NCBI GenBank assembly: GCA_973895155.1
Contig: OZ316891.1
Span: 21,504,513 to 21,568,512, forward strand
From: Marsupella aquatica
Taxonomy: Eukaryota > Plantae > Marchantiophyta
Direction: 5' to 3'
Length of the DNA: 64,000 bases
Shown here: piece by piece, positions 427-22,700 of the stretch
How the letters are laid out: each line of letters opens with the position of its first letter
Position numbering within the stretch: the stretch's first letter is position 1
The notes under the pieces: generated by a model
Told to the model about the DNA's origin: nothing
Seen by the model: the letters and a program-made list of their open reading frames with translations, nothing else
Databases searched by the model: none
Position numbers and translations under genes: made by a program

Positions 427-429
427 CAC

Positions 430-800
430 TAGAAGAATCCGAGGTGAACTGAGACCGCAATATATGACTCATTTTGGCTCATGTGACTTCATTGTGACTC
501 AACGTGACTTGACCCACGCTGTGACCCTTGGAGTTGCAAAAGTTGAGACCAAAAAATGGAAGTCACTATTGATACTGGGCTTTGCAACTTGCTTGATACC
601 CATTTGTGACTGATCTGTGACTTTATTGTGGAGTCTAGCCTTGTTTCGACGTGACTGCAATATGACTTCAGCGAGTCACATCGTAAGTCACATACATGAC
701 TTACCCGCATTCAACAACGACTAGCGTGTGACTATTTAGTGTCACAGGAGAGACCAATGGAGACCCTGGCCCGCGTCACACAACAGAACCATTTGGGACT
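430..800. repeat. CACTA subterminal repeat region (GTGACT/AGTCAC, GAGACC motifs)
   Basis: Dense short motifs in both orientations just inside the TIR, matched by a shorter array at ~18590-18650. Confidence 0.7.
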
Positions 801-1281
801 CTATATACTCATGTTTATAACTAATAAGGTTCACATGCAAGTTATAACCATGACTAATGAACACAGAGGGACAGTTCATAAGAAGAGAGAGCACTCGACA
901 TTACAATACATAGAAACCTGATGTTCTAACTTTAGAAATATAACACATTGAATACAAGAAATGAACATAGCATGAATGACATCCACATGAAACAAAGCAT
1001 CATATAAGCAGATCCTACATAAAACATTCATAAGAATTAAACACAATCACAATCTTGCTAAAAAATGAAGATCATTTGAATTCCAATGGAATAGTTTACA
1101 ATGTGATCAATGTAATTTAGACAAAACAGGAACTCATAATTGATGACTGTAGGATGAGATAACTGAAAGCACATGCATGATACTATGAATCTCCAAGAGG
1201 ACATGATTCTTGTACTGTTTCTTGACATCTAAAATCTACATAACATGACTCACACTACAAACAAATAATGGCATGACATTG

Positions 1282-4200
1282 TTATGGATCCTCTATGAAC
1301 TTGCTTGGCCATAATACCAAAGAACCTGCAGCATCTCCAAGTGTCTTTTGAGGAGGATCATCATTTGTGTTTGGAATGGGAAGGACAGCTTTAGGTTTCA
1401 CTAGTAATGTGACTAACACTACTGAATAACCTGGGGGAATCCTCTTGCCATGGAACGTTGTGGAACCAACCTGCACTCTGGCAAATCCTACTCGTGTTCC
1501 ACTCTCATCAACAGCTAACAAGCCACTTTGTCCCTCAGCATTAGGTGCTTTCCCCACTTCCACCTTAGATCTTTCTGCCAGCACTGTTCTTGGAGGTTTG
1601 TATGAAACCTTTGACGTGGCTCTGCTCCCACCAGCAGACTTGCTTCGTGTGCGCATGCTTCCTCTCTTCACAGTAGTGAAGCTAGGCTCAGTAGGTTCCT
1701 CTGTTAGGACTGTCACAGTAGCAGGTTCATCACCTGGGAGTGTCATACCAACTAACTCTTTGGTTGGATTTATCTCAACAAGAGGCACACCTGTCATTGA
1801 GAATGATACATTCTGCAAATCATTTATCTCTGCAATGGAGTCAAGATCTACATAGCATGAATCTGGCTCAATGGTATCATTGTCATGCTTGCTGATATCC
1901 TCATTTGCCCCAACATTGATATCATCCACTCCCTTGCCAATGTCATCCTCATCCAAACATGGTTGACTGCCCTCTGTCAAACAAGTTGCTTGTACAGACT
2001 GCAACTTTGTTGCCTCTAAATTACAGCGAGTATTTGCCAGGTTCTCATACTTCTTCTCTGTAGCACCTGTCTTATTCTCTATGGACACAACAACCACAAT
2101 ATATGTTACTGAAAATAACACATTCAACAAACAATGTCAATTCAAACTATACATTTAATAATCATATCCCACACAGTTGTAAAGGCCTTACCTTCAAGCC
2201 TACATGTCGTTGGCATGCCAGAAGAGTGCATCGACTTTGCCACCTCAAGTGGTGATGGTGGAACTCCTGCAGAATTGGAATCAATTTTATCTCTCACCGA
2301 CACAACAGCTTCCATTAATGTCTTGAAGTTCACATGGAACAAGTCAGTCAATGAATTCAAACGTTCATTGATCTCTGGAAGACATGTTTCGACAGCCTTC
2401 AAACGACCACTTATCTCTGTAAGTGAAGATCCACCTCCCTACATGACACAGGGGTATAGGTTCAATCACTCCATATGAAATGTTGGGCAATATATGCACA
2501 ATCAATGTTATATACAGTGTACACCTGAAATTCAACGCAGGTCATTCAATTACCAATCAGAACTCATATAACTTACATGCTTGGAGGATTCAGATGCACC
2601 CTCTTGAGCCCGGGTGTTCACAATTTCAGCCCTCAACTCTTCTTTTGAAGGGCTTTGCCCCAATTGGGCTTTCTGCACATGCATGGCAAACACAAGTTAT
2701 CGATCAATATTCAGGGAACGTACACTAAAAAACAAAGTTTACATGTAGGGACAGTACACTAAAAAATAGTACATAGTGTAGCATAAATTACATAGCTAGG
2801 CCATTCATTCTTACCAAACGTTTAGCTGTCGGTGCAGTGCCGGTCCTTCCTGTCAGATTAGGGTTCTGAACACTCAACCTGGCCTCGGTCATCTGTGAAC
2901 TCTTCTTTTTTGAAGCATCTGTTACAAAATAAGCTACTAACCTTGCCCACACTTTATCATCACAACTGGCTGGTGGAGGCATATCTGGCTTCTCCCCACC
3001 TTCCTTCCAAGCCTTATGCATTCTCCACCTCTCTTGCTTGATAATTTTACCTGCTGTACTCTCTAGGCAACCTATGTCCACGCCATCATCACTGCCCACA
3101 TAATTCCATTTGGCAGCAACATTTTCACATACAGTCTTCCAATCTTTTGGATGCTGTTTTTTAAAATTAATAACACTCACATCTAACCAACGCAATACTT
3201 CAGCTTTCAAATCAGCATGCCATCGGTTCTTGCGAGGACACTCAGCATCCACCCATTGTCTCTCATTCAACTTTACGTTCCCTTTCTTTGTCACCTCCCC
3301 TCGTGCACTGCTCTCGGTAGTACTGGGCGTTGTATTGGCCACCCCTTCATTCACCCTACCTGGGGTTCTGAAGCCACCTGGGAAAATACAATGCCATTCA
3401 TGCTTGAGAACTACATATAGCAGAATGGATGACGGCAACATTCAATGCTTCACTTCAAGAAAAATTCTTCAAACATACATACCTGTAGCTCTGCCTGTAG
3501 ATGCCTGTGCAGGGACTGCACTCTGAAATTGTTGCGACCCTGGACCACCTGTCCAGCCTAGTACAGGGGCCGGATGATGTCACTTTCTAGGTATGTGTGT
3601 GCAAACATATGTACTGAAAACTAAGTACAAACTGTAGGAAAACAACTGAACATTCACCGACATACCTGTCCCCCTTCCGTGCTGCATCTGCATAGGGGCA
3701 TTAGTGAATACTTGAGTCGATGGTTCGACTGTCCAACCTGCACACATACATTTTCTATCATTATACATGTGCAGAGTCCCCCCCACGTGAATGGACTCCA
3801 CATATAATGAGTTCTTCCATTGCTGACAAGATCAGACATTACCTGCTCCTCTTCCAGCGTTTGTAGGTACTGAATTTTGATATCCCTGCCAATTACCTTC
3901 ACCACCTTCCCAACCTTGTTCATTCCACGACCCACCACCATCCTCCCAACCTGGTTCAACCCATGTCTGTCCTTGTGGACATTGGAACTGATCATTACTA
4001 GCATTTGCCCAATCAGGTTGGGCAGAATCTGCATGCAATGGCAGGTGGACAGAATTTCATGTTGTCTGAATCCAATACATCCCAAACAATGTCAAAAATT
4101 GATATGCAGTCTGAAATTCAGGAGTGCCATGCCTTCACAAAGAACTGGCATATAGATATATACTCACATCCCCACGGTTGAGGTGGACGTCCATACCCAC

Positions 4201-4989
4201 GAGATTGTGGGTTTGGACCTGCTCTGCCTCTACCACGGGCATAACCTAGAGCTTGCCCCCTGCCATAGTATTGGGCACCAGCCTGGGATCTACCACTACT
4301 ACCACCTCGCCAACCTTGATCAGAGGTCAGCCCCCCCTGCTGGTATGGTGCATGCACAGGCTTCGAAGGCAAAACAGAACTGGCAGGACGCTGCATCACA
4401 TCACCAACTACAATGTCAGGAACTAAGCAAGGTACATATGTGTAGTACTGAACATATGAAACCTCTAAACAAGAGTTTTTAACTCAAAACCTTGTTGGGA
4501 AAACTACTTACATGTTTCTTTTGGGGCTGCTCTGCAATGTATTCATCTTCATAACCCCCATCCTCATCCATTTCCTCTGGAAAATACTCATCATCTGCAT
4601 CTTCTTGTCTAGTGTCTGCACCCACCTGTGCAGCATCAATGTCATCTCCACATTCTGCCATTGTAGGTACGACCTTCTTGCTCAACCTGTCACTCCGACG
4701 CACAGGCCCAGAGATAGTGCTGGTCACCCTTCTTGCGTACTCCTTTTGTTTCTTTGAAAATGCTGTGGCTCTGCGACATTCCAATATGAGAATACAGTCA
4801 CAATTTCAGTGCCACATTGAACTATTCATGTCACACAAACTCAGCGGAGGGGTGTAGTTGAGAATCGTTCCCTTACAATTCAGCCACATCCTTTTCCAGA
4901 TCCAGTTCTGCGATTTTGGCTTTCACGTATGCTCGTTGTTCCATAGCTTTCCTTTCATACTCACACATCTCTGTGTCACTCTGTTCCAT
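1282..4989 (-). CDS. CACTA second ORF (TnpA-like, multi-exon, ~10 exons)
   Basis: Chain of minus-strand ORF pieces bounded by GT..AG. 2788-3378 resembles the Ptta/En/Spm family (..VWARLVAYF..SKKKSSQMTEAR..TGRTG). The last exon ends in the typical HGKRIPPGYSVVLV..LPIP..TLGDAAGSLVLWP motif. Proposed ATG at 4989; exon boundaries approximate. Confidence 0.75.
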
Positions 4990-5145
4990 CCTACTGGACC
5001 ACAAAAACATGTCATCTATGGTCACCCCGTATAACACAATGCAACCACAATCACCAGGCATCCATCCATACATCTGTGTTGCTTCAGAATTACTTTATTA
5101 CACATCCTTCCCCTCACTAATGTCTATGCAAACAATTCACATTAC

Positions 5146-8100
5146 TCATGGCACAGGCACACTGTTGGCATCTGCATCTCTGAATTCGCCTCCTTCAGCA
5201 AATGCATCTACCCTTGTCACAGGAATGAAGTCCCCGCTATCATGAACTACAGGCACTTGGTCTGAACGCCGACGATCAAAGGCACTATGAGAGTGTAAAT
5301 GAAACTCAAGGTTTGATCCTTCCATCCGGCGTTGCCTGGCCTGTTTATGACACACTACACGCCAACCTGGGGAGTCTTCCACATCCAGGAAGAAAGCTTG
5401 CTCCACCTGACTAGGAAACACAAATGGCTCAGACCATTCGGGCAATTTCCCTCTGAAATTGGCCAGCAAGAAACCGTCGTTGTCTCTCTTCATGGTAGCC
5501 CTGTTACCAAGCCAATCCTGCCGCACCCATGAACCTTTCATAAGAATCACAGGACTGGACACCGCCCCATAGTCCAGAGCCCATATGTCAACTAATTCTC
5601 CCACATATCCCATCTCCATCCAGGCCCTGTCGTGATTGTGGCTCTGTTGCTCAAATACAGTGATGAGCCCGCAGTCATTCGTCACCCTGTAGGCACTGTC
5701 ACCATCCTTCACTCGGAAGTGATTCCCATATGCTCTCATCCGTTTGTAAGTCTTCACTTTCAGGCTAGGGGCATTAGACAGTAGGTAAACATCTGCATCC
5801 ATGTCTGGGTGGGTCTCGTGATGCTCTCTAATTGCCACTCTGATCCACTCCATGAAACCTGGAAAAGTTGTTCCTGCAGTGGGATGGGCCGCCTTCAATG
5901 ACTCATACTCCCTGAACGAACAACCACACAGCATTAGCTTGGGTAAACATGAACAGGCTGAAGGAGAAAACCACACGAACACAACATTTAAGCTCATGAA
6001 CTGGATTATAGCACATGTATGCACTCACTGTATCCAGGGTTCCATCACCACAGTGTTGTGCAATACAAAGTCATGTGCCAAGTCTCTCATAGATATGGTC
6101 AGGTTCTTTGTGGTTGCAGCCCCTTCCAGTACTTCACCTACCACCCCTTCCTCCTCATCAGAATTCCACACCCTGGTCTTCACATGCTCATATTGTGCTA
6201 TGTATTCGGTCAGAAATCCCAGAGTCTCATCCTTGATGTAACCTTTAGCCATGCTTGCTTCAGGTTTGTAATATGTTCTCACGTGACCTTTGAGTAGCTT
6301 CATGTACCGTTCCAAAGGGTACAACCAACGAGCACTCACAGGCCCAAATTGGTGTAGCTCTTCCACAACATGGACAAGTAGGTGGGTCATGACATCAAAA
6401 AATGCGGGAGGAAAATAAATCTCCAGGTCACACAGCACCTGAGCGACATCTTCTGTCAGTTGTGGGAAGTGTGTTTCATCCCAAACCTTCACACAAATAC
6501 GACGAAACACATCACTGAGTCGCATGATCACAGTACGAACAGGCTTCTGCAACAGGCCCCTCAGGCATAAAGGCAACACCTGTTGCATCAACATATGGTA
6601 GTCATGGCTTTTCATACTACCAAGCTTTCTAGTCATGATATGCTTCTTGAAAGCACTGCCATAGTTTGAAGGAACCTTCAAAGAACTCAACCTCTGCACA
6701 AATAGTTCCCACTCTGTGTCTGTCAGAACATAGGGCGCTTGGTACTTCAAGAGCACATCAGCTCTGTGGGCATGTGGCCTCAACCAAAGATGGGGTTTCA
6801 TTCCCCTCTGTTCAAGATCCAATCTCACTGAACCAGTGTCTTTCTCTCCACACAAGAATCTGAGTAGACTCTCACAAATATTCTTTTCAATGTGCATAAC
6901 ATCAATGTTATGTTTGCTTGGCTCAAACTCCTGCATCGTTGCAATGCAAAAGCGTCAGGAAATGCCTCAAGTTTAGTCTCTCTCTTCGAAATGAATGCAC
7001 ATGCTCTGAACCAAAACATGTATCCCAATTAGCATCAACTCCAAGAGGCTTACCCTCCAGTACTTGAGCTCCAAGTCCAATATGCTCAGTCTTTTTACAC
7101 CATATCGCTTTATTGGATCACTCACTCCATCTTCCCTGCCCCCTCGTTTGATATAGTCATCCCTCAGTGCTCCCCACTGCCTGATCTCCTCTTTGGTCAC
7201 TCGTGCCGGGGGTCCACGTTGCTCAATCTCATTGCCAAAGTGTGCAATCAGTGCCTGTCTTTCTCTGTAAGGGTGATCTGTCTTCAGAAAACGACGATGG
7301 CCCATGTATATCACTTTCTGCAGGGCTCTGGAGTACTCACTGGTGACATTGCGCCCACAGATAGTACAAGCACAATATCCTTTTGTTGTTTGGCCTGATA
7401 TCATCCCATGGGCTGGGTAGTCAGCTATAGTCAGAATGACAATGGCTCTAAGGATGAATGGGTTTAACCTCCCAAGCCTCTGTAGGACATCATATGTGAG
7501 AACTCCTTCCTCCCAAAGCTTTCTCAATTCCTCCACTAGGGGAGCCAGAAACACATCTATGTTGGCAGATACAGCACTGTCTGGCCCTGGTATCAGTAGG
7601 ACCATCAGAACAAAAAATCGCTTTGTAGTCATCCAAGGAGGAAGGTTATAATTCAAAATAGTTACAGGCCAGCATGAAAATTTGTTGTTCTTGTCTCCAA
7701 ATGGGTTTACCCCATCCAATGACAGCCCAAGTCTGACATTCCTCGGCTCAGCAGCAAATTCGGGATACATCTCATCTATGAGTTTCCATTGCCTTGAATC
7801 TGCAGCATGTCGTTGTAGCCCATCATCACTTTTCTTGTCAGTTGCCCAAGTCATCATCTCCGAGATGGCACGGCTTCTGAACATCCGCTGAAGTCTGGGA
7901 ATGAGTGGAAAATGACGAAGTACCTTGGCGGGAACCATAGACTTTCCTGAGTTCCGATACCTGTGCTTCCCACACTTAGGGCATGTCAACGATTCTTTAT
8001 ACTCCTTTCTGAAAAGAACATGCCCATCAGGACAGGCATGGATCGAATCATAGTTCAATCCAAGATTAGATATGCATCTTTTTGCCTCGTACATGTTCTT

Positions 8101-8877
8101 GGGCAAAATATTACCATCTGGTAGCACAGTTGTTCGCAAGAATGCCAACAACTCAGAAACCAAAACGTTGGGGACATTGTGGTTGCCGCAAATGTTCAGG
8201 AACATGATGACAAATCCCAGTTTAGAACATTTGCTACCGGGGTACAAAGACTTCCTGCCTTCCTGTATTTGCAAGGGAGAGCCAAACATCCCATCATGCC
8301 CAGGGGTTTCCTGCCCTATCTCAAACTCATCAAGAGGCTCTTCGACAGGGGGCACACTTGCATCTGCAGCCGTATCCTCTTCATTGTCCAGCCCATCATG
8401 AAATGCATCCAAGTCTTGGAAGATGTCTCTCACCATCTCTTCCACATGAATTCCTTCGTCACGTGGTGCTGCCTGAGCACCATCCCGTTGGAGAGCTGAC
8501 AACCCACAGAGACCAGCTACAACATTTTCAAATGCACCAGGCAGAACCTCACTTGCCCGTCTTGCAGCATTGGCAGCATCAAATTCTAACCTCCACTCCT
8601 CGTCGGAAGAATCTTCCTCTGCAGGATCATTCCAAACTCGATGTCGTGGATCTCTTCCATGAACCGCGATATGCCGCCAAACCTCATTCAGACCCCTGGT
8701 ACGGGATCCTTGGCAGATTGCACAAGGACATCTCATCCTACTGGCTCCTGAAAGTCTGGTTCGTAACCTTTCACGCTGCCAAAGCTTATTATCATGGCGT
8801 GATATCCTTGTGGGATGATGCAAAGGCAGTGCCTGTGCCCTGGGCTGGGTCTGGGGAGGGTGGTGACCAGGGTGCAT
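5146..8877 (-). CDS. En/Spm (CACTA) transposase, TnpD/TNP2-like; 3 exons 8877-7054, 6930-6029, 5911-5146 (~1163 aa)
   Basis: N-terminal CPC..C transposase-associated motif. Transposase_21 motifs IHACPDGH, LRHFPLIPRLQRMF, RLGLSLDGVNPF, YNLPPW, DYPAHG. HNIDVMHIEKN, KSHDYH, FPPAFFDVMTHL, WLYPLERYMKLLK (DUF4218-like) and EPFVFPSQVEQAFF (DUF4216-like). Both GT-AG introns join in frame (1824+902+766 nt). Confidence 0.93.
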
Positions 8878-9310
8878 TGTAACAGGCTGGGAGCTCTGCA
8901 GTCATGGACAGCAGTGAACAAGGATGCCTAATGGTGGTATTTGTGTTCCATATATCCCTGACTGTATCTGCCAAAAGAGTTAACATAACGTGTACTAAAT
9001 TCTCACAAACCCTAAACCACCCCAAAAGAAAAAAACAGGTTCGCAAGTAGTGTACCTATTGTCAAGTGAATGACACAAAATTTCTAAATGTTGGAGGGTG
9101 TCACCACCTCCTCCGCTGTCCTCAAATGTACCGCCTCTGCATGTACGTTTACAGTGACACCCCCAGGCAGCAGGAAACAACAATCCGCCAACAGTAAAAT
9201 AAGCCCAACTGCCACCAACCATAACAAGGTACATTAGTTCAAAGATCACATTTATTTCAATGATCTGATTTATACAAAAAAACTTGTGTCCAAACTGATG
9301 CTACTACTCC

Positions 9311-10183
9311 TCACTCTGATTCAGAATCGCTAATGACCCATTCCTCACTTGTTGTCTCATAGTCCTCTCTGTAAGGATCCTGACCCTTCCGTGGCCAGGC
9401 CTCAAAAAGATCATAGTCCATTGGGTTTTGACGCTTCCCAGCTGCTACTGATTCCACAAGCCAAGCATATGAAACCACAAACACATTATGGGACATGACA
9501 TAAAAGCGAATGTCTCCCTTCCCAAACTTGCGGCAGGCTTTGGGATATGACTTAGTAATGACATGAGTGGTGTCCTCTGTTATATTCTCCTCCACTGTCC
9601 CACCTAGGTCAAGCACTGTGGACTTGTACACTTTGCACTTAACCTCTCCAATTCCCGCCTCCACAAATACCATGCTCAGCCCTTTCAGAATGGGGGTTGG
9701 TTGCTTCGTCTCCTCAGCCAACATACTCTTCAGCCTTGTAGAGCTCTGTCCTTTGTTGAGTACAGGTCCATATTGGAGATCAGCAAGCCGTGCCTTTGCT
9801 TCCCAGACTTCTTGTTCAGCCCAAGCTGATGCAGTAGCTTCTTCATCCTCCCACAACTCATATTGCTCAGTATCCTGTACAATCTTATGTGCTATGGAAT
9901 CTGTGATCCAAGAGGCCTCAACTACTTTTAGGCCTTGCTTAGTAATTGCAGAATTCATGTAGGACCATGACCACTTCTTTATCACTGATAGCCATGTCCC
10001 TGCAACAACATGTGTAGTCTCTGGAGTGATGTCCTGAACTACAGTGCCATGGAGCTCAGAGAATCGTTTCTGTACAGTTGGCCAATGCACTTTGGTCAAC
10101 CCATGCTGGCCATGGACCAAAATCGCTCTGACCCCTGTAAACACTGCTGGGTGGTCACACTTTCTACGTTTACCAGGCTCCAT
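9311..10183 (-). CDS. Intronless tandem-BRCT protein (~290 aa) encoded inside the CACTA
   Basis: Two BRCT-like repeats, each with G-x-V..THVV/I and a W(I/L)xxS helix. Basic NLS-like PGKRRK at the N-terminus and an acidic tail. ATG at 10183. Confidence 0.8.
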   Translation of the reverse strand: MEPGKRRKCDHPAVFTGVRAILVHGQHGLTKVHWPTVQKRFSELHGTVVQDITPETTHVVAGTWLSVIKKWSWSYMNSAITKQGLKVVEASWITDSIAHKIVQDTEQYELWEDEEATASAWAEQEVWEAKARLADLQYGPVLNKGQSSTRLKSMLAEETKQPTPILKGLSMVFVEAGIGEVKCKVYKSTVLDLGGTVEENITEDTTHVITKSYPKACRKFGKGDIRFYVMSHNVFVVSYAWLVESVAAGKRQNPMDYDLFEAWPRKGQDPYREDYETTSEEWVISDSESE

Positions 10184-10775
10184 GTACACACACCCTACGT
10201 GATGACAGTGAATTTTGGAAGAATGGGTTCACCTGACAATACAAGGACAACAAAATTCCTGCTTTTTGAGTTGATCTGGCCCACTGGTGCTCAGGTCCGA
10301 TTTTGATAGGTACAAGGGATATGTGAACAATACGTACTAGGCACCTGCACGGATGCAGGACATTGTTTGAATATATACTACAAAATCCATATCCGTGGTG
10401 AAATGAAGTGCAACCAACTTGTCATGGCACATACATATTTTGTTGTAAAGGAGGATACATTCAATGACAAACTTATAGGGCAATTTGATTAATTGCATGC
10501 CTGATAATTTATACGCTTACAACTTAGAAGTCCTGTTTTAATTTAGCAGTGTGATGAAAGTGTTTATGAAAATGACCACTCAGCCTAAATACTTCCAAGA
10601 AGGCTTGTAAGGATAAGTTTGTATAGGCATGTACCCAGCCACTGACGCCAGAGCACAAGATAAGTGCTGCCTATATAAACTCGCCTACCCAACTCCTTTT
10701 CAAAATTGGAATCTCTGCAATCTCAAAAAATAGTACATCCACATCAGGTGCACTGTGCATGTACAATGTTCAGCT

Positions 10776-11456
10776 TCACAGCCAAGATATGTGATCTCTC
10801 ACAGGAGTGCGCGAGGTAGGATCAATGGCATGGCGATGACAATAAAATATCCATCGATCAACACCATGTGCAGAGTGATCATAGATTTCTCTGTCACAAG
10901 CATAACCCTCTGCTTGATGATCTTTCAGGCAATGATAGTGCCACATAGTGGGACACCTAGCACAGTGGACTATGTCAGTCCAGTAGTCATCATCATGCTC
11001 ACCACATGCCTTGCACCTATGAAGTGGGCAAGCTGTGGCATGAGCAGGCAAACACTCAAAACAGAAAAATCTCACACAAAAACGGTCTGGACATTTCCTA
11101 ACATTTGCTGCAGCATCAACAGAGCCCTCATAGGACCCCAACTTCCCACACTGTGCACACTTAGCCTGCTTCTCCAAACAATCAGTGCACATCCAGTCTC
11201 CCTGGTGTGTTGACGGGAGGCCCACCCCTGGACAGTTGTTTTCTGCAGCAAGGTCAGACTCCGGGTTGAGGTGGAAATGCCTCATGCAAGGGCCCTCACA
11301 AATGACCAGGCCCCCACCATCGTCACAAATGGCACAACAATGAGCTGCCTTCTGGAAAATCTGACTTGCAGAGAAGTTAGTAGCATCTGCCCCAAGTACA
11401 CCTGTGTTTCTCACCTCTGTCACACGCTTTTTGGCTTGAATTTTAGGCCGTGCCAT
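10776..11456 (-). CDS. Intronless stand-alone EDM2/NSD-type PHD finger protein (226 aa) encoded inside the CACTA
   Basis: CAICDDGGGLVICEGPCMRHFH, CAQCGKLGS, CPLHRCKAC, CARCPTMWHYHCL and terminal IFYCHRHAID..TPVRDHI follow in order the PHD region of plant EDM2 (recalled: CAICDNGG..CEG.C.RSFH, CPLHKC, CRRCP..YH..CL, IYC..H.ID...TPVRDH). Confidence 0.85.
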   Translation of the reverse strand: MARPKIQAKKRVTEVRNTGVLGADATNFSASQIFQKAAHCCAICDDGGGLVICEGPCMRHFHLNPESDLAAENNCPGVGLPSTHQGDWMCTDCLEKQAKCAQCGKLGSYEGSVDAAANVRKCPDRFCVRFFCFECLPAHATACPLHRCKACGEHDDDYWTDIVHCARCPTMWHYHCLKDHQAEGYACDREIYDHSAHGVDRWIFYCHRHAIDPTSRTPVRDHISWL

Positions 11457-11467
11457 GCCTGCGCATG

Positions 11468-11611
11468 AGATAGACTCTACAATTTAGCAGACTGCACAGA
11501 AAGTAATATATATTTAGCATTTAAGGTACAAAGGCATTTAGATAGACTCTACAATTTAGCAGACTGCACAGAAAGTAAAATATATTTAGCATTTAAGGTA
11601 CAAAGGCATTT
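11468..11611. repeat. 72-bp tandem duplication immediately upstream of the PHD ORF
   Basis: agatagactctacaatttagcagactgcacagaaagtaa..ggcattt occurs twice, near-identical. Confidence 0.9.
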
Positions 11612-12226
11612 GCTACTGCAATGAATTGGAATGGCCACACAAGGATGCAGAGCACACATACTTTTGGTATGTTGAGCCCACACACAAAACTGATCCCCTA
11701 ATACAATTTCTCCACCAACACCTCAATTTTAATTGTGGCTATGATTCACCAAAGGAGATCTGCAACAACATTTCATGCATTTGAATCACATACAATAGTC
11801 GTGACATGTAAAACAGGCATTCTTCGAAGAGGATTGGTATGAAGCAGTGTCATAAGGGTTGAAATTTATACATCCTAAATAGGTTATGATAGTGGCTGAG
11901 ACAAATAAGTGAGGCATAAATCATTTTGCATATTATCACATGGCCCATTAATTCATTCAACGTTGCAATGTTCACCAGGTTAAAGCAGTCATGAAAGCAG
12001 TCTTTCAATAGAGACTTTTATGCGAGTTTGCTAGCCTCTTAAATTAGGATATTTTGCTTAGTGCAGGCATAATAGGATATAAGTTATATACTGTTGACCC
12101 TAAACCCTGGACCCAAAATTGCTCATACATCAAAATTTTAAGTAAATATCCTCTGTGTTGAAGTCAGAGTGTTAAGCTATAGGTCAATGGTATCTGGTCT
12201 GTGCATGCGGTGTGACAAGTGGTCCT

Positions 12227-12676
12227 CTAGAGCATGTGATCCAAACATGTGTAGACACCAAAGTCACCGGTGGTGGGGTCTGGGAGGGCAGGACAAGTGA
12301 CATCACCAGGCACACTGCAGGATGGCGAGTGGTTCCAAATGATACATTGTGCTCTATGCAAAAATCGGCATCCAAGAGAACGGTCATCCAATTCTGGGCC
12401 AGAAGCCCTACAGGCAGGACAGTCATATTGGCAACTGTGTACACACCCTTGGCACCTAATTTGTGGCGGGTCATGTACAAGAGACACAAATACCAAGGAT
12501 GTCGGGAAGGGTACTGAAGCAAGTAGAGGCCGGCTGTAGTTGTTCCTGGAAACAACAGGGTACTCAAAGTACCATGCAGACTGGGCTGGAAGGATCCCAA
12601 GTCTGACATACTCAAGGCGCAACATCTCTGCCTTGCGTGCAAGTCGCACATGTTCAGCGTTGCGGGTCCTCACCAT
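12227..12676 (-). CDS. Cys/His-rich hypothetical protein (149 aa), possible zinc-binding
   Basis: Uninterrupted ATG-initiated ORF co-oriented with the other CACTA genes. Contains CxxC, CPAC and further C/H residues; no family recognised. Confidence 0.5.
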   Translation of the reverse strand: MVRTRNAEHVRLARKAEMLRLEYVRLGILPAQSAWYFEYPVVSRNNYSRPLLASVPFPTSLVFVSLVHDPPQIRCQGCVHSCQYDCPACRASGPELDDRSLGCRFLHRAQCIIWNHSPSCSVPGDVTCPALPDPTTGDFGVYTCLDHML

Positions 12677-13671
12677 AAGTGTTGCTTTTGTTGTGATGTC
12701 CTCTGTTCACGTCCTTTGATGAGCAAGGTGAGCAGGAGGTCGACTTGCCTCGCCAACAGCAACCACCTAAACTAATCAGTTCCCACTCAACTACAGGTCA
12801 TAGTATACACATAGCATGAAACGTGCATAGTACATATTTGATTCTGAGTTTATGAGTTTCCTAAGACAAAGAGCTTGGTGATAAACCCATATTCTCGATG
12901 GACATGTATATCAATCGTATTAAAATCCTGTTTTTTCATCCAGAAAGACCGAAAGTCTCACCTTGCAGGTTGCAGCAGAGAGAAAATTCACTGGTTGTCG
13001 TGTTGTGCAAGTGAACCTCCACTGATGCCCCCGGTGTAGCCCCTCAGATGCAGGTGACACTTACCAACTCCCAAGTTGCCTGGTCTAACAGAAAATGCTT
13101 ATATCTTCAGAACTTTATAGAGCAAGTACATGATCACATACTTCTGGATCTATTCATATTTGGAACTCTTGCCAACTACAACTCCCATTATGCACAAGCT
13201 CACATCAACAGAGAAAAATACAGAATGCATACTTACTATGGCTCTAAGCACCTTCACTACCTTGTTGAACCCAGTCCTGAAGTCTTTTCAGCGTGTTTGT
13301 TGTGCTGTCTCCTTTGGCACCCAACACCTTAGTCCTTGATGTAACAGAATGCGATTTTACAAGTTAGATGCTTTGGAACCTTCTATGGTCTTAGCTGAAT
13401 TGATGTCATCGTAAGTGGTGAAAGACAAGGAAGACGAAAGCTGGTTGAAGAGCTGTGGACAACACACTAGCATGAAGTGCTTCAACCAATCCACTGCCAA
13501 ACGGAACTCTTACACAGTCACATTCTTTCAGTAAACAGAAACTCAATCAAACTTCATAATCAAAGTACAGACTCTGAAGGACCAAAGGAGGATGTTGTGA
13601 GTTTCTCTGTTGTTTAATGTGTTACCCTTCTAGTTTCGAAGTTAGCAAATGCTGAATAATGTGTCTACCAG

Positions 13672-14011
13672 ATCTTCGAAAAGAAGCCCACCACAATTAA
13701 GAACTTTGGTATCTGGGTGAGGTATCAGAGTTGTACAGGTTATCCCAACATGTACAAGAAATATTGTGATACCACATTAAACAACCACACAGCAGATGTA
13801 TGATGAGATGGCTTCTTGTCATAGAGTTCGGTTCCCTTGCATCCAGATCATCAAGACTACGACAGTCCCTGTCTCTCTGTGCAAGCGAGAAAGTACCAAG
13901 CAGTTCCATGATTCAAAGATCAAGTTCCCCTTGACGTACCGCAAGATTCAACCTCCATCGCGAAAGCTAAAGACGACTTACAAGGCCACCAAGCCCAACA
14001 CATTTGTTTGA
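13672..14011 (+). pseudogene. RPL18A: Captured last exon of 60S ribosomal protein L18a (eL20), frameshifted
   Basis: Translates [32 protein letters not shown] / [54 protein letters not shown]. Frameshift near 13785; preceded by the intron acceptor ctaccag. Confidence 0.92.
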
Positions 14012-15850
14012 GTAGTGCGGGTGTAGGTTCCCAATTTTGAAACAATTTGGCTCATTTTATGTCCCGAGGGACTCCAGGAGTTTATGTATTGAGTTTCTAG
14101 GTCAAGATGCTTAATATAAGGAAATTCAATTATCACCTCGTTCCCAACTTCTATTAATTGAATATACACAAGCTGGAAGCAAGAAGACAAGCCACAATCT
14201 AGCATCTTAGCCAAACACAATCGTCCCGACAAAGCAAAACTCAGCTGGACAGAAGTCACTCGGATCCACAAAAAATTGAAGATTCACCTCCAAGCCGGAG
14301 GCCGATCACTTCAGTACAGCAGCTTCTGGACGGAACAAACTCTGCTCAGCCCCACAAAAACACAAATGTTAAGGCTCCAAGTCAGAGCTCACAAACAGAA
14401 ACTCAGATAAATAACATTCAAAATCTGTCCAGGTTTGTGCAAAGTGTACATATTCATTCTTCTGGAATGAACACGCAATGCATACATCGCCTAGACACAG
14501 TCATTATAAATCATTGGGCAATTGGGGACCACTAAGCAGGTGTGTTCCTATTTCGAGGCTACAAGAAAGGATAGAGTGACACCAAACTGAAGAGTACACC
14601 AAAAGAAAAACAGCAAGAACCAAAGTCAATCATGTGTGGATATTTTGCACATGGGAAGTTCCCCTGAAGAAGCACCAGTTGCTAACATTGTCACCCGAAC
14701 CACACCCAGTTTATTACCTCAATGTCTTCAGCCTCAATATCCAATCCTCAGCCCCCTGGTGCTTCCGTGTTTGTTCTGAAAATTTCTGTGATGAAATAAT
14801 TATTCAATACATTCAATAGCAAAGAGAACTCAATCACAAAAGAAAAATAGTTAGTGTGAATGCTAATTTCTCAACACTTAACTAAATTCAAACCACCAAT
14901 TCAAGTAGTAAGTTTCAAAAACTTGCCTTTACATGAAGAGAAACCAATTGGCCATGCATGTTACTAAAGCAATAAACAAATAATTAGGCTCAACCCCGGG
15001 CTCAACACACAGGCAAACTACTCGAAACATGCTGCTGAGAAGTAACATTTTTTGAATGTCAGACTATGTGTAAGTGCCATGATCGTGCTCCTACGTTTCA
15101 CAAGGAGGGCTGGCCCGAAAGGGAGAAGCAACAATGTGGAGTCTATACACGTAGCACAAATCCCAGTTTAGAAGGGTGGATGAAGTTCAGACAAGAGTTC
15201 AGAACTTGCCATTTGAGATTGCCAATCTGAACTTCACATTCAGACAGGACTTCATCCAGTTCAGGAGTTCAGATAGGAGTTCAGACAATCTGAAGAGGAC
15301 TTTGGACTTGAATGAGGGACAGCGTGGCCATATAGTTATCCTTGTGGCCTTCAGCTGCGTGTCTCAGGCTGAATTTCACTTTCCAGTTTCGAGAGTTCTG
15401 AAGGTCTAGTTTTAGTAACTTCCTCCTGACTCGACTTGGGAGCATTCTCCCTATTTGCTAGCTTGTAGTTAGCTTTGACTCCTGTGAGCTTAGTTGACGA
15501 CCCTCTTGAGATATTAACAATTAGAACAAACACAAGTTGTCAAGACAGATTCCACCGGAGCAAAAAGTCCAAAATCAGGTGAAAGAAAACCTAAGGAAAG
15601 TCCATAAGAACGAAAGTAGGAAGGCAGGTGCACGGGCCACCGAGAAAAGTAAAGGATGCATGTGATTAGTGGGGAGGGATCTTAGCAAAAATAGGGGAAA
15701 GCAAGGGAACTTGCTGCTAAAATCAGCTGAACGATTGCACGGTTCCTATAAATTTAGTGGACCTTAAGGCCGTCTGTTCAGCCCCCCACCCCATTGCCAG
15801 AGCACGGGGCACAAGGCATGTTCTGATACAGGGAGGAGCAAAACAGTCAT

Positions 15851-16900
15851 GTCAAGCAAGAAATGTGGAGAGACCAATCAGTAAGCAAAAATAGGGGAGA
15901 ACATACATACATGATCAGCAGCAGCAGGAAACAAGAAAGATGATTTTGGGTGGCATCTTAGGGTCGGGGACACCACTGCAACACCGGGACTTAGGATATG
16001 AGTTGTTCTTAATCTGCTAGTAGCATCCGGCAGGCCGGCGACCCATGGCAAAAGGGCAGAGCAACAATCCGCTAAAACTACCGAGTCTCACCTTTGCGCT
16101 ACTGACTGTCACCTTTGTCCAAGGTAGCTAGTAATAGCAAGTTGAAGTCCCGCTCCAAGTTGTCGGCTTCCACTCCAAGCTCCCTAAAAGATTGTGGCCT
16201 CAGGTCCAAGTCGTTAGCTCGCACGCGCAACTCCCTAAACCTACACACAGCGGAAGCTTAGCTCACCAACAACTTGCAGAAACAATGACCTCCCCTCTGA
16301 AACTGATAAAAACACCTGAATACAAATAGTGAAGCACGAGGACAGAACAGGGAGAAGCGTTTTGCAGTTTGGGACGACAATGCTAGGAGTGTATACACTT
16401 CGGGCAACAGGGAGGTCCAATAATAGTTTGAATCTGACGGATGAAGCTCTAGGCGAATGAGCTCCAGGAGATTGGGTGCATGATTGAGTAGGCAATTGTA
16501 ACAGCAGGCACCTGGCGATTGAAGGAAGCAGCATTCGGCAATGGACCTAGGCAGCTCGCGAATTTTGCTCAGCAGCGATGTCACCTAGACCCTAAACACG
16601 CAATGCATACATCACCTAGACAACTATACTTGCAGCCACGAGGTGAGTCCGCGATAGGGGATTGAAGGAAGCAGCAAGTCAAGCAAGAAGCGTGGAGAGA
16701 CCAATCAGTAAGCAAAAATAGGGGAGAATAGACATACATCAGCAGCAGCAGGAAACAAGAAAGATGATACTCTGTTCCATCTTAGAGTCGGGGACACTAC
16801 TGCAACACCGGGACTTAGGATATGACTTGTTTTTAAACTGGAGATAGCATCCAGCAGGCCGGCGACCCATGCCAAAAGGGCAGAGCAGCAATCCGCCATG
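15851..16900. repeat. ~220-bp dispersed direct repeat (15851-16072 and 16678-16897)
   Basis: gtcaagcaagaa..ggagagaccaatcagtaagcaaaaatagggg..caacaccgggacttaggatatga..ggcagagca.caatccgc occurs twice with moderate divergence. Confidence 0.9.
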
Positions 16901-19404
16901 TAGCGATAGGCGAGAGCAGCGATTACGACGATGAAAGATGGTCAAAGCTGAAGCAAAACCCCTAAAGATGCAGCTTGGCCATACTCTCTTTCCTCACCTC
17001 ATAGCGCTAGGCATTCAACCTCCCTCTTCAATGAACCTCACAACAGCTTGAAGGTCGATAGATTTTACCTCGTCTCCTGAGCAGAAACGTCTGCATTAGC
17101 TGAACAGAGCCCGGAACAGAGCTATCGCATTTAGCCTCCCGACTCCAAAATTGAACGCAACACAACCTCCAACTCCCAATGGCAGCTCAGTAGGTTGATC
17201 AGCTCGGTCAATGCAGGTCAGTCGACCTCAATAGCCACACTAGAAGCTCACCGCAAGTCACTCAAAGGTCAGACTAGAAGCTCCGCCGCCTTCACACCGT
17301 AGCAAAAAACAATGAGACCAATATCGAGCAAGGCGACCCTGTTTGAATATTTGGCGACCATCAGGCTCCACCCCTCCTTTCTCGCTACCGTTCCCCCATG
17401 TGATGGTTAAGCTTCTGAGGACACAATCAATCGCACAAATGTAGCTTAAAGCAGGACCTCACTAAGCAGACTATCGGTTAGGACCTTATAGACATAGAGA
17501 TAGATAGGTCAATGCAACCTTACTTGGGCCGATGCAGCATGTCTCTTCACAATGTGAAGCAGCGCAGCATTCCTCCACCTAGCTCGCAGTGATCCTCCGC
17601 CTTGCTTGCAGTAACCAGCCTCCGCCTAGCTAGTTTGCACTGTCACGGCTGCAACTTTTTGTGCAATGACTTGGCCCTCCTACCAACTACGAGCTCCCAA
17701 AAGTATGTCGAGCAGATGTACACTCAGGCACCACCTCGTAGAGCTCAACTCCAAGTCGGCAGCTCTCACTTGAAACTCAATAGCAGCTTAGCTCACCAGC
17801 AGGTTGAAAAGCGACAATGGACTCCCCTCAAAACTGATTGGCAGACCTCCACACTGACGCTCGTAGCAGGCCCAATCCTAAACACATTTGCACCCTAAAG
17901 TCCAGTCGCGCTCAAACACTTTCAAACGACCCTGCAGGAAGTTCGCGAAGAGTGCAGCTGGAATGAAGGTCGTCGACTCCCAATTTCCCTCGCAAAACCA
18001 ACCTCTGCGGCACACTGACCCTGAACACTTAGGGCAAGTAGTACCCCCAAAATCTCTCGCAAAACCAACCTCCAAGGTACACTGACCCTGAGGGAAAGTA
18101 GTACCCCTCACATGTGGGCAGCCATCGAGTGACTTAGCAAACAGGTTGGTTTGGACATAAAAGAACCAATGCAAATGACTTAGCAAAAAGTTCAATGTGG
18201 GGAGAGTGCACTTTGGTCAAGAACAAGGCCAAATATAGTCAGGTATGAATCCACATTATAAGTGAAAGTACCCACCATTCTGATGAAAACCCCCATATTT
18301 ATACCCATTATATTTGGACTTATTGAACCATGAGTGTGCAATATGTAGTTGCACCGGGAGTTGCATATTAGGGATTGGCATCCGAAATTGGCTAATGGGG
18401 TATGCATGCTGACGGAATTTTAAAAAATGATGTCCAATTCATATTGCACTATTGTGGAGTAACTAACATAACTTACCTATTTCTTACTTACTAGTGTTAC
18501 AATAGCGACATTGGATAAAGTTGTAAGCATGACTTCCCACAACCTCACCAAAACTTAGTTGGTATGATGTAACTAACATGACACCCACAAACTTGGAGTC
18601 GCATATTTATGAAGGTCTCGCACAAGTCACATAGGGGAGGGTCTCAGAATGGGTGGTTTTCTTCTAGTGCATGCAGCTCTCACCATAGCTTTCCAGCCTC
18701 GTGAGCTACCTTCAATCTCCATAGCTCAGTAGCACGAAGCTGCTCTACCCGGTCACCAGCCAGCTCTCCACTTTCAAGCTTTTGATTTTGCTGCAACTAC
18801 TTCAGGCAGCCACGAGTTTCAGGGTAGCAACATCAATCTCAAGGATCGATCAACAACTAATGTAGTGAGCTCTCTCCATAGCCTATCAATAGCAAGCTCT
18901 AAGCAACAAGTTCTAATTGAATAGAAGCCAATTGTGCAACAATACTCCTTCCATCAGCATTGCTCCATCTTCCATAGCACAATGCTCTCCCTGCAACGGA
19001 GCTCTAATTGAATAACAGCTCTCCTTATGCAGCAACACTACTCCCGACAACTGTAAGCTCTCAGCAACAAGCTTGAAGCAACACCACATTTTTGATTTAT
19101 CAGTAGCAAGCTTCTCTCTCTAGACTCACAACACGAATCTTTTTTAGCCCAATATTTCCTCTCAAACGGCAACACCAATCTTCGCCCTTCATTACGGACC
19201 CGGGCTATAGTAGCAAGCTTTCATAGCAGTAGCAAGTGTCCAATGCGCGTAGACCGAGCTTCAGACCCAAGTTTGTTTAAAACGATGTAGCAGAGTTTGA
19301 GCAACGCAACATGTCTCTCTTTACAAATAACAACAATTATTCTCAACCAACATCGAACTCAATAGCAATAGCGGTTTAACTCAACAGCACAAAATTGAAA
19401 TGCC

Positions 19405-19747
19405 TGTTGAGCATAGACCACACTTGTAACAGTAAGCACATGACACATCCAACGCGCAAGTAGTCGACACAAGAGATACGTGGTTCACCTCCTCGAGGCT
19501 ACGTCCATGGGAATACACAAGAGATCTTTACTGAACTCTAAGCCCGTCGCCTATACCAAGTCTCCATAGTGTAAGCTCTCCTCATTTCTCAAGTGGCTCC
19601 ATAACAATGAGCCTAAGTTCCACTTAACCAAGCAAACACCGCTTGGCATATAGTGTATATCCTAGTTAGTCTAACCACATCTCCGACTATAGTTAGTCTA
19701 ACTACGGTTACATATCGTAACCCTAGACCTTGAGTAAATACCTAACA
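19405..19747 (-). repeat. 3' LTR of copia element
   Basis: TGTTGAG...CTAACA, adjacent to the PPT. Confidence 0.93.
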
Positions 19748-22700
19748 ATCTCCTCCTTGACTGTGGTCTAGGGGAGGGTAATACTGCTAGCCTATATGAT
19801 TCCTCAGTGGGAAGTTGCGGACAAAAACCAACATGGTTTCCCCTCTCTAACTAGAGCAAACCAAAACTAAGCCGTAGCCTATTACTAGGAGTGAAGAAGA
19901 GCATATATCAGTAATTACAGCGAATGTTAAGAAAAAACATTTACTTGTGACGCAATTGCAAAACCTACAGCACGTCATGATGTCTAGAGAAATTTTCCGA
20001 AGGAATCACTTTGTTAAATGCGTCAGCTGGGTTGAGTTTACCGTCTATCTTGACTAGCTCAAACAAATTATCAAACACAGCCTGCCTGATAAAATGATAC
20101 CTGACGTGTATGTGCTTTGCTCTACTATCCATCACCTGGTTCACAGCAAGGTGGAGCGCACTTTGACTATCACAATGAAGCTTCACATTCCCTTATGGCA
20201 ATCCCATTTCAATGATAAATCTATCCAACCAAATTGCTTCCTTCGCTGCTTCCGCTGCTGCAACATACTCTGCTTCTATAGTAGACTGAGCAATACACTT
20301 CTGCATAGTAGACCTCCAACTTATGCATCCACTGCCAAGTGTGAACACGTACCCTGTTATTGATCTCCTTTGGTCTAGATCTTGTCTATGATAGTCAAAA
20401 TCTACATAGCCAATCAATGATCTCGCATTCTTTGCATTTGCATCAAATAAAAGACCATGATCCACGGTATCCTTCAAGTACCTGATAATCCACTTCACTA
20501 CTTCCCAGTGTACCTTCCCTGGATTTGACATGTACCTACTCACCTTGCCCATAGCCATGGCAAGATCAGGTCTAGTGCAAGTCATCAAATACATGAGACT
20601 TCCTACTGCCTTCTCATAAGGAACCTTTGACATCAGCCCCTACTCTGTCGCATCTGTAGGACAAAAAGCTTATGACAGTTTGAAGTGTACAGCCAAAGGG
20701 TACTTACTGGCTTACTATCCCCCATGTTGAACCTAGCAATTACCTTCCTCGCATAACTGCTCTGTGTCAATCATAGCTTACCAGTCTCCAAGTCTCTAGT
20801 GATCTCCATACCCAAAATCCTCTTAGCTGGCCCTAGCTCCTTTATCTTAAACTTTGCACTGAGCAGTACCTTAAGCTTAACAATCTCAGACCTATTCTTG
20901 GCCGCATCAAGCATGTCATCCACATAAAGTACTAAAACAATGAACCCAAAGACAACATTCTTCACCGGTTTCAAATATACACAAGGGTCAAACACACTCC
21001 TGTGAAAACCTTGTGACCGAATCCAATCGTCAAACTGCTTGTTCCACTGTCTTGGTGACTGCTTCAACCCATACAAGGATTTCAGCAATCTACAAACCAG
21101 TTCCTCCTGTCCTCTCTTCACAAAACCTAGCGGTTGTCTCATGAAGATCACCTCTTTCAAGGTGCCATAGAGGAAAGCTATGACAACATCCATCTGATCT
21201 AGAAGCAGATCAAATATTACAACAAGCACACACAATAGCCGTATTGTTGAGTACTTAGCAACTGGTGTAAAGACCTCATTGTAATCCACACCTTTTTCCT
21301 GTGTGAATCCCTTGGCTACCAACCTAGCCTTGTAGACCTTTGATCCACCTCTCGTAGACTGATTCTTCAGCTTCTATATCCACTTACTGTCCACCACTTG
21401 CTGACCCTTAGGCAACTTAACAAGCTCCCAAGTTTTGTTGTCCTTCAGTGACTGCATCTCCATTTGCATTGTTGTAGTCCACTTCTGCTTCTCCTTTGAA
21501 GCACTTACCTCATGAAATGAAGAAGGTTCCCCTTCTTCCAAATTTAACGCATCATCCTCATCATCAGCTGCAAAATTGTCCTCTTGTAGTTGAGATGAAT
21601 CAACCCACTGTCCATACCTAGGAGGAGCGCGTACAATGCGACCATATGTTCTTCTAGCCGATGACTCCGGTTGAATTGCATCTACTAGTACAATTTGAAG
21701 CTCAACAACATCCACTTGCTGCTCACCAGCATTAACAAACTCCTCTTGTTCCTCTGGCACAGGAACTAGCTCCATGCTTGAAGCACATCCTTCTCTCCGA
21801 TCATGCACTTCATGATCAATCTCCCCCTCAATGAGATCTGGGATAGGAGATTTCCCTTTGTCAGTATGAAAGACCTGAATATTCTCCCCCTCCTTCAATA
21901 ATTTGGATTCATTGAAGGAAACATCCCTATTGACAACAAGCTTATAGGCAATAGGATCCCATAGCATGTAGGCCTTCACACCACTCTGATACCCAAGAAA
22001 AATACATTTCTTGGATGTAGGATCCAACTTGGTCCTATTCTGCTTTGGTGTGAGAACATATGCATCACTTCCAAAAACTACCAAGCCATGATAGTCTGCT
22101 TGCCGCTTATAACGCATTTCAAATGACGTTTTGAAATTGATTGCACTAGAAGGAGAAAAATTTACCAAATAAGCTGCAATATTGACAGCTTCTACCCAAA
22201 AATTTTGTGCTAAACCTGATTGGCTCAGCATACTCCGTGACCGCTCCCATAGTGTTTGATTGAGCCTCTCAGTGACACCATTCTGCTGCGGAGTATAAAC
22301 TGTGATGAGCTGGTGAGTTATCCCCTGTTCTGCACAATACTCTTCAAATTCTATTGAAGTATACTCCCCGTCGTTGTCTGACCTCAGACCCTTCACCCTG
22401 GTATCCAAACACTTAATCGTGTTTCCTGTCTGATTCTCCACTTGGGCCTTCTACTTTGTAAAAATGGACAAGACATCGGACTTATGCATCATGAAACAAA
22501 TCCAGACAAATCTCAAGTAATCATCAATGAAGGATACATAGTCCAATTTTCCAAAATGTGAGGGAGTTGGGGATGGTCCTCACACGTCACTATGTATGTA
22601 CTCAAGAACCGCTTTGGAACAATGAGTTCCAACACCAAAAGCACGATGATGCTGCTTTCAAAAAATGCAATGCTCACAAAAATCCAATTTACAAGACTGC

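Follow-up and report, generated by a model that had tools for sequence, protein, structure and literature searches.

A stretch of 64,000 nucleotides of Marsupella aquatica (Marchantiophyta; assembly GCA_973895155.1, contig OZ316891.1, positions 21,504,513 to 21,568,512 of the forward strand), referred to below as the window, carries a CACTA/En-Spm transposase gene together with a candidate pair of terminal inverted repeats, a probable TnpA-like gene, a captured fragment of RPL18a and three further open reading frames (ORFs), which form the subject of this study (Table 1). These three ORFs, termed the cassette, encode a double-BRCT protein, a block of EDM2-type PHD fingers and a protein rich in cysteine and histidine (ORF3), respectively. 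Each reads uninterrupted from ATG to stop codon on the minus strand, upstream of the transposase and in the same orientation. Their coordinates and ATG-to-stop reading bear out an earlier interpretation of the locus (the sequence-only reading), which had described three intronless, uninterrupted ORFs upstream of and co-oriented with the transposase. The domain labels which it had assigned, a triple PHD finger, a tandem BRCT and a Cys/His-rich orphan, hold to different degrees, with two BRCT stretches passing the Pfam threshold, three NSD-type PHD models matching the PHD ORF in order but each below the cut-off, and ORF3 belonging to no family. No Pfam match to VANC or PMD was observed for any of the three ORFs.

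Table 1. Positions of the element's features in the window

Feature	Position	Strand	Remarks
Candidate left terminal inverted repeat	427..456	+	begins CACTA
TnpA-like gene, multi-exon, probable	1282..4860	-	Transposase_24 match within 2788-3441
CACTA/En-Spm transposase	5146..8877	-	TAD, Transposase_21, DUF4218, DUF4216; three exons
Double-BRCT ORF, 290 amino acids	9311..10183	-	two BRCT stretches above Pfam cut-off
ORF with EDM2-type PHD block, 226 amino acids	10776..11456	-	22 Cys, 16 His
Tandem duplication, 72 bp, recent	11468..11611		copies 99% identical; directly upstream of PHD start codon
ORF3, orphan Cys/His protein, 149 amino acids	12227..12676	-	10 Cys, 6 His
RPL18a 3' part, captured	13676..14011	+	antisense to element; frame change near 13782 in this copy
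Candidate right terminal inverted repeat	18640..18669	-	terminates in TAGTG

Chance occurrence of the ORFs was evaluated using 1000 first-order resamples of positions 9001-13600, in each of which the longest ATG-initiated ORF was scored. A length of at least 290 amino acids was reached 0 times and one of at least 225 amino acids twice. At least 149 amino acids were reached in 74 of the 1000 resamples, and the length of ORF3 alone thus lies within chance.

The PHD reading frame and EDM2

Residues 41-225 of the PHD ORF align at 30% identity with L001, a grass protein of 1305 amino acids with RFD and PHD domains, which, from its architecture, we take to be EDM2. The two proteins are collinear from the first cysteine through a common TPVRDHI tail. 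At equal database size the PHD ORF scores 53 and 60 bits against the EDM2-type proteins L001 and L004, as compared with 18 bits against human NSD2, while its top Atlas cluster is a streptophyte NSD-type PHD cluster (0.92). An alignment of six sequences contains 34 invariant columns, most of which are Cys and His. As in EDM2, there are 2.5 atypical NSD-type PHD fingers, but the remaining EDM2 domains are absent, with the stop codon directly following the PHD block. The ORF is thus likely to be a module derived from the EDM2 type, rather than a member of the EDM2 family.

Five full-length relatives of the PHD ORF, with 37-82% identity, occur among unannotated assembly proteins. A metagenome scan with the PHD alignment retained eleven loci from 221 candidates, seven of which (L001-L007) are EDM2-type plant sequences and four (L008-L011) weak matches. 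No transposase was evident by eye among the long ORFs of these eleven loci, and none of 42 candidate stretches in viral contigs proved to be a relative. The loci L002-L007 represent short, stand-alone EDM2-type PHD proteins of about 220-330 amino acids from grass-like transcripts, and L004 and L005 begin with a basic MARK.. arm, as does the PHD ORF of the element.

The double-BRCT reading frame and DNA polymerase lambda

The BRCT ORF comprises a basic N-terminus, two BRCT domains approximately 45 residues apart and an acidic Ser/Thr-rich tail. Two full-length relatives, at 60% and 54% identity, were found among unannotated assembly proteins. A profile search retrieved 60 proteins at an E-value of 0.001, the best of which are short and contain one or two BRCT domains and nothing else, and ten chosen relatives (264-321 amino acids) share 23-60% identity in their best segment. 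A polymerase family was detected by Pfam neither in the BRCT ORF nor in its scanned relatives, and no annotated host gene for the double-BRCT family occurred among the clusters looked up. None of the 128 candidate stretches in viral contigs, nor any of the 74 in bacterial genomes, were relatives of the BRCT alignment. The structure prediction for the BRCT ORF, with a predicted local distance difference test (pLDDT) value of 36, was not used.

The single-BRCT host proteins among the hits include ones named DNA polymerase lambda (Pol lambda) or bearing its catalytic domains. From the hits, 131 BRCT domains were cut, of which 128 were placed in a quick tree after three fragments or duplicates had been dropped. 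One group in this tree unites 25 of the 26 domains of the double-BRCT family with all 20 Pol lambda or Pol lambda-like domains and three short single-BRCT proteins, where four of the 20 Pol lambda rows have the name or a polymerase domain, the other 16 and all the family labels having been assigned by us. This group is set apart from 78 TopBP1-, REV1-, PARP-like and other BRCT domains with a Shimodaira-Hasegawa-like approximate likelihood ratio test (SH-aLRT) value of 90. In a more careful tree of 59 chosen rows, the split uniting Pol lambda and the family received support of 77/94 and was present in 80% of 200 bootstrap trees. Furthermore, when 104 host domains were ranked with a profile built from either repeat alone, 14 Pol lambda-type or short single-BRCT domains came first in both cases. 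Both repeats therefore probably originate from Pol lambda, as judged from these sequence comparisons. Among named land-plant proteins, two short single-BRCT proteins of Riccia fluitans come closest, while the closest algal protein derives from the "Mesen1" gene set, a pattern that hints at a host outside the seed plants.

Tandem BRCT domains of the BRCA1 type incorporate a Ser/Thr-Gly phosphate pocket after strand 1. At the aligned place, repeat 1 has His-Gly and repeat 2 has Ala-Gly, and a BRCA1-type phosphopeptide reader can be discounted. The acidic Ser/Thr-rich tail (9311-9380, minus strand) is common to the double-BRCT family, including P0014, P0079 and P0082, and presumably resembles the casein kinase 2 sites bound by FHA-domain repair proteins.

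ORF3

Two full-length relatives of ORF3, at 56% and 54% identity, are present among unannotated assembly proteins, and seven Cys and three His residues are invariant across the three sequences, which suggests that the protein binds zinc. ORF3 matched no Pfam family, no sequence in the PDB and no Atlas entry. Its predicted fold (model pLDDT 60) had no Foldseek match at an E-value of 0.001 in the PDB or viral libraries, the best VIA Z for the model being 4.0. An overlapping frame of 155 amino acids at 12184-12651 has no Pfam match.

Tests for selection on the accessory reading frames

The relatives of the three ORFs are represented by their proteins without the corresponding DNA, and were compared with neutral codon simulations. 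Among five relatives of the PHD ORF, 21-27 of 27 Cys and Trp residues are retained, as opposed to neutral means of 10-22, and between none and two of 400 simulations reached values as high. In each of the five pairs, conservation is higher in the finger block than in the N-terminal arm (p 0.013 to 1e-6). For the BRCT ORF, the substitutions relative to the two relatives are more conservative than neutral, with 0 and 4 of 400 simulations reaching the observed values, and a neutrally evolving BRCT ORF remained free of stop codons at the observed divergence in only 0 and 2 of 400 runs. The sequence-only reading had proposed that the ORFs are maintained by selection on the element. Tests at the protein level favour purifying selection, with strong support for the PHD ORF and good support for the BRCT ORF, while the result for ORF3 is borderline. 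It had also set the ORFs apart from near-identical, recently captured host segments, in agreement with the approximately 30% identity observed to EDM2-type proteins. Among the best 40 of 796 variants, fifteen fall in the transposase and TnpA frames, ten of these being synonymous and five non-synonymous.

Copies in public sequencing runs and the RPL18a fragment

Twelve public DNA runs, chosen for holding the cassette, were considered, and four of these (X2, X3, X5 and X6) were mapped on positions 300-18800. Ten of the twelve runs contain the region 9000-12900 or part thereof, and five of these, from three organisms and three studies, include over half of its words (one of these runs may be the source). 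None of the runs is recorded as RNA, which carries no information on expression. The cassette is thus not confined to the copy in the window, as the sequence-only reading had anticipated for a maintained gene set. In X2, the median summed contig depth, which is not a copy number and to that extent weakens inferences about copies, is 57k over the transposase, 59k over the cassette, 19k over RPL18a and 6k beyond 14.5 kb, with corresponding values for X3 of 131k, 124k, 41k and 11k. This hints that the cassette travels with the transposase core, and that fewer copies contain the distal 5 kb, RPL18a included. Beginning at the left end, depth runs without interruption to about 13250.

Peaks of depth in X5 and X6 lie over the transposase, at up to 2309 and 2582, respectively, and in the PHD bin, at 556 and 2718. 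BRCT shows lesser peaks, the spacers show none, and the remainder is shallow. Such a profile would be expected from repeated relatives that have diverged and match in their coding parts only. Contigs of these two other organisms overlap, that of X5 covering 8811-9146 (from the start of the transposase into the spacer) and that of X6 9117-9480 (from the spacer into the BRCT ORF). No contig spanning the whole cassette occurs among the pieces listed, and no joint removing it was found among the best 15 of 132 joints.

The captured RPL18a fragment had been contrasted with the intact ORFs as decayed, antisense and frameshifted cargo. The antisense orientation, the fragmentary state and the frame change in this copy are borne out, but in X2, 3814 of the 5919 contig depth at position 13782 carries two extra bases which bring both RPL18a halves into one frame. 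As most of the X2 depth carries these bases, the frameshift is not family-wide, and the contrast between intact ORFs and decayed cargo, although the ORFs themselves are intact, is weaker than had been claimed. A direct repeat, with units at 15848-16072 and 16675-16896 (approximately 825 bp apart, 84-89% identity), is located distally in the element, where depth is low.

Transposase genes and candidate termini

Splicing of two GT-AG introns, at 6931-7053 (123 nt) and 5912-6028 (117 nt), yields an intact transposase of 1163 amino acids with a single stop codon, in line with the intact transposase previously described downstream of the co-oriented ORFs. Pfam matches to Transposase_21 (E 2e-70) and DUF4218 (E 5e-28) are accompanied by below-threshold matches to TAD and DUF4216 (E 1e-4). 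The Transposase_24 match in the TnpA-like gene downstream of the transposase likewise falls below the Pfam cut-off (E 1.5e-4), and the last exon of this gene has no Pfam match.

The candidate ends at 427 and 18669 match at 21 of 30 positions, tied at rank 2-5 among 7322 CACT[AG]..[TC]AGTG pairs. Subterminal motifs cluster at the left end (451-760; eleven GTGACY/RGTCAC and four GAGACC copies), with a smaller cluster at the right end (18614-18640). There is, however, no 3-bp target-site duplication at 427/18669, the flanks being TGA and CAT, and this counts against the ends. They are thus only plausible termini of the element, and the placement of the ORFs between terminal inverted repeats, as proposed in the sequence-only reading, finds support in the subterminal motifs at both ends but not in the inexact repeat match or the flanks. 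Because the target-site duplication is absent and the repeat match is not unique, the coding core alone is called CACTA-type, and the copy is not filed as a complete insertion. A shared leader with alternative splicing was also considered, given one donor-like site (12963) and acceptor-like sites preceding three of the four start codons, but was rejected, as a background of 0.5 such sites per 160 nt places this model no higher than chance.

Proposed roles and alternative explanations

The PHD and BRCT ORFs are likely to be binding-only pieces of host proteins, and docking parts kept apart from their catalytic parts would fit a role as adaptors or decoys. That the three ORFs are maintained accessory genes of some function is quite probable. 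The more specific proposal, that a CACTA-type transposon keeps them as adaptors for docking onto silenced chromatin and onto the complex that repairs breaks by end-joining, appears to us about evenly poised. It refines the toolkit for heterochromatin and break repair envisaged in the sequence-only reading to an EDM2 PHD block and a Pol lambda-type BRCT. EDM2 contains 2.5 atypical PHD fingers in addition to acidic, PGR, methyltransferase-like and proline-rich parts, and is reported to bind H3K9me2 (PMC7529245). Within the AAE complex, EDM2 is described as giving full-length transcripts across intronic heterochromatin (PMC9292364), and EDM2 is reported to raise COPIA4 transcripts, which depend on it, and to lower Mu1 transcripts (PMC3632883). 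The PHD protein could thus attach to histone H3 tails in the heterochromatin of the element itself, and may recruit or out-compete the host partners of EDM2 such that a silenced element produces full-length transcripts. The BRCT domain of Arabidopsis Pol lambda is stated to bind Lig4 and XRCC4, and Pol lambda to be implicated in the repair of transposon excision sites (both PMC4444747, citing Roy 2013 and Huefner 2011), while binding of Pol lambda to Ku via its BRCT is described in PMC10657183 and PMC11997757. The double BRCT might bind Ku and XRCC4-Lig4 at the excision break, on the sites where Pol lambda docks, and, as a decoy, would slow end-joining and favour gap repair from the sister copy, by which the excised copy would be restored. 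As the double BRCT comes without a polymerase, such a decoy is slightly favoured over a bridge that speeds sealing. ORF3 may be a zinc-binding partner of the PHD or BRCT protein, which is the least-supported step of the model.

Several results weigh against these proposals. The acidic run that precedes the first PHD cysteine of EDM2-type proteins is replaced in the proteins of the element, and the histone specificity of the PHD ORF may accordingly differ from that of EDM2. Neither tree has a starred Pol lambda branch, and the BRCT domain is short, while the Arg of the GIxxxR helix of the Pol lambda rows is missing from repeat 1 of this copy, and is replaced by Lys in its repeat 2 and by Thr in P0002. 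The relatives used in the selection tests were found as intact called proteins, which biases the comparison towards open frames. Three-way invariance of the BRCT ORF does not exceed neutral expectation (63/500), and the difference in identity between BRCT domain and linker has p values of 0.14 and 0.057. For ORF3, 69 invariant columns were found where 61 are expected (34/500) and seven invariant Cys where four are expected (35/500), with BLOSUM results of 38 and 368 of 400. The sole cassette variant among the 40 examined is non-synonymous, and no distant relative of the ORFs was placed beside a transposase. Finally, X2 and X3 show greater depth in the PHD and ORF3 bins than over the transposase, and loose ends occur in X3 at positions 9146 and 12079, from which it follows that the PHD and ORF3 modules also occur in other contexts. 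The modules are probably shuffled among subfamilies, contrary to a fixed three-gene unit.

The conservation evidence would apply equally if the cassette served in target choice, with the PHD protein tethering the transposase to marked chromatin, as the RAG2 PHD does for RAG1, and the BRCT protein helping to finish insertion. PHD domains are recorded in five of 1846 Mutator-like element (MULE) transposases (PMC12973397 Table S6), Pol lambda mutants are reported as defective in transgene integration (PMC4444747), and the replaced acidic run before the first PHD finger would permit a new specificity. However, the PHD protein consists almost entirely of zinc fingers (residues 39-226), with no transposase-binding segment identified on it, and this role is considered unlikely. 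A lower probability still is assigned to the ORFs being old captured pieces of host genes, which act as camouflage or small-RNA decoys, or hitchhike in a recently amplified family, with their conservation resulting from repeated capture from the host. CACTA elements often carry host fragments, for which camouflage has been proposed (PMC8978399). Short host genes of such kinds exist in the form of the EDM2-type L004 and L005 of grasses and the single-BRCT proteins of Riccia fluitans, and the selection tests for ORF3 are borderline. Nonetheless, the ORFs contain no introns, share one orientation and have only about 30% identity with the closest host-type proteins found. An annotated host gene for the double-BRCT family is missing among the clusters looked up, and zinc ligands are retained between relatives which are 37-53% identical. 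Camouflage in particular is disfavoured, since it requires likeness to a host gene at the DNA level, for which approximately 30% protein identity is insufficient.

The least probable alternative is that the three ORFs constitute a separate nested element, or domesticated host genes, inside or beside this CACTA copy. The absence of a target-site duplication at the candidate ends, the greater depth of the PHD and ORF3 bins relative to the transposase (X2, X3), the loose ends at 9146 and 12079 (X3) and the lack of a cassette-spanning contig among those listed could all be accommodated by such an arrangement. It is less readily reconciled with the overlapping X5 and X6 contigs, which connect the start of the transposase, by way of the spacer, with the BRCT ORF, or with the unbroken depth from the left end to about 13250. 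In addition, none of the best 15 of 132 joints removes the cassette, and internal terminal repeats are absent from the 25 longest inverted repeats. The adaptor reading could be extended to a widespread lineage of plant CACTA elements encoding catalysis-free mimics of EDM2 and Pol lambda, through which heterochromatin is transcribed and excision repair diverted to gap repair, but this generalisation is regarded as doubtful.

Comparison with known systems

The element resembles CACTA/En-Spm transposons in its string of transposase domains, the probable downstream Transposase_24 gene, and the candidate CACTA-like ends with subterminal repeats, as well as in the capture of host fragments in the 5' region (PMC8978399). 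CACTA elements are reported to gain Peptidase_C48/Ulp1 and Transposase_24 domains, while the main text of the same source makes no mention of PHD or BRCT (PMC8978399). Here, by contrast, three intact, separate ORFs lie upstream of the transposase. In a survey of 1007 genomes, restricted to elements of 2-12 kb, one of 775 active plant CACTA clusters is listed with an accessory RTT107_BRCT_5 domain and none with PHD (PMC12973397 Table S6). The giant En/Spm elements of Chondrus crispus are likewise CACTA elements, of 16-20 kb with four to five ORFs, but in the main text of that report the domains of the extra ORFs are unnamed and PHD and BRCT unmentioned (PMC6431247).

The VANC proteins of VANDAL elements, which belong to the MULEs, are also transposon accessory proteins, probably derived by capture of the host chromatin regulator MAIN (PMC13547354), and BRCT, PHD and EDM2 find no match in the three supplements of that paper which were searched. 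VANCs bind the noncoding regions of their own elements in a sequence-specific manner (PMC10398659). The present cassette differs in superfamily and donor, and has a histone-reader block, with no sequence-specific DNA binder identified. While the PHD ORF shares with EDM2 and EDM2-like proteins 2.5 atypical PHD fingers in collinear arrangement, together with the Cys/His segment behind them, it lacks the RFD region (seen in L001), the acidic domains, the ELP methyltransferase-like domain and the proline-rich tail, and comprises 226 as opposed to about 1300 amino acids. Similarly, Pol lambda shares with the BRCT ORF a basic N-terminus directly followed by a Pol lambda-group BRCT, but in the latter the BRCT is doubled, with approximately 45 residues between the copies and an acidic tail, and there is no polymerase or lyase domain. 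Coupling of transposase-derived cutting to a PHD reader is known from RAG1/RAG2, where the reader is RAG2 (PMC5175335), and coupling of cutting to Ku/Lig4 and a BRCT-bearing, lambda-type PolX from Paramecium PiggyMac (PMC11997757). These systems are domesticated and employ full host enzymes, whereas here a selfish element appears to carry adaptor parts.

No description of a CACTA element with BRCT or PHD accessory genes was found in the literature searched, which excluded Repbase and most subscription papers and included supplements of PMC12973397 and PMC13547354 only, so that the supplements of other CACTA surveys could bear on novelty. The principle of transposon-borne accessory genes is known, but the combination of PHD, BRCT and ORF3 appears to be undescribed in that literature, and the likely host donors of the PHD and BRCT ORFs are new here.

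Surroundings of the element

Purine-rich tandem repeat arrays with units of 17-37 bp occupy positions 1-420, just outside the candidate left end, past which contigs in X2 and X3 continue. Just past the candidate right end, a broken copia-type long terminal repeat retrotransposon with RVT_2, integrase and SH3 matches extends over about 19400-24250 (minus strand). It is followed by a CACTA..TAGTG pair at 24207-27451 (21/30 match, CTT/CTT 3-bp duplication) and, overlapping this pair, a long inverted repeat at 25420-29694 with arms of about 650 bp at 85-87% identity, both of which may represent additional non-autonomous DNA elements. Two intronless MFS_1 transporter ORFs in inverted orientation are located at 42753-43922 (plus strand; Pfam E 6e-27) and 58846-60429 (minus strand; E 5e-41). 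Both have a guanine plus cytosine content of 55-57% and an observed/expected CpG ratio of about 1.1, as compared with 0.2-0.4 in the transposons, and presumably resemble fungal allantoate-permease-type proteins. Horizontal transfer or a chimeric assembly is possible. Between the two MFS genes, an intronless ORF at 51969-53648 (plus strand) encodes a protein kinase of 559 amino acids of the receptor-like cytoplasmic type.

Implications

Copy gain by cut-and-paste transposons and their escape from silencing hinge on break repair and on the transcription of methylated DNA, and few element-encoded factors for repair or anti-silencing are known in plants. As the candidate donors have known partners, namely H3K9me2 and the AAE complex for EDM2, and Ku and XRCC4-Lig4 for Pol lambda, direct binding and footprint tests are possible. 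A small BRCT protein which shifts the balance between end-joining and homologous repair in plants would be useful for genome editing. If the proposed role is correct, a transposon-encoded regulator of repair pathway choice would represent a eukaryotic counterpart of viral end-joining inhibitors.

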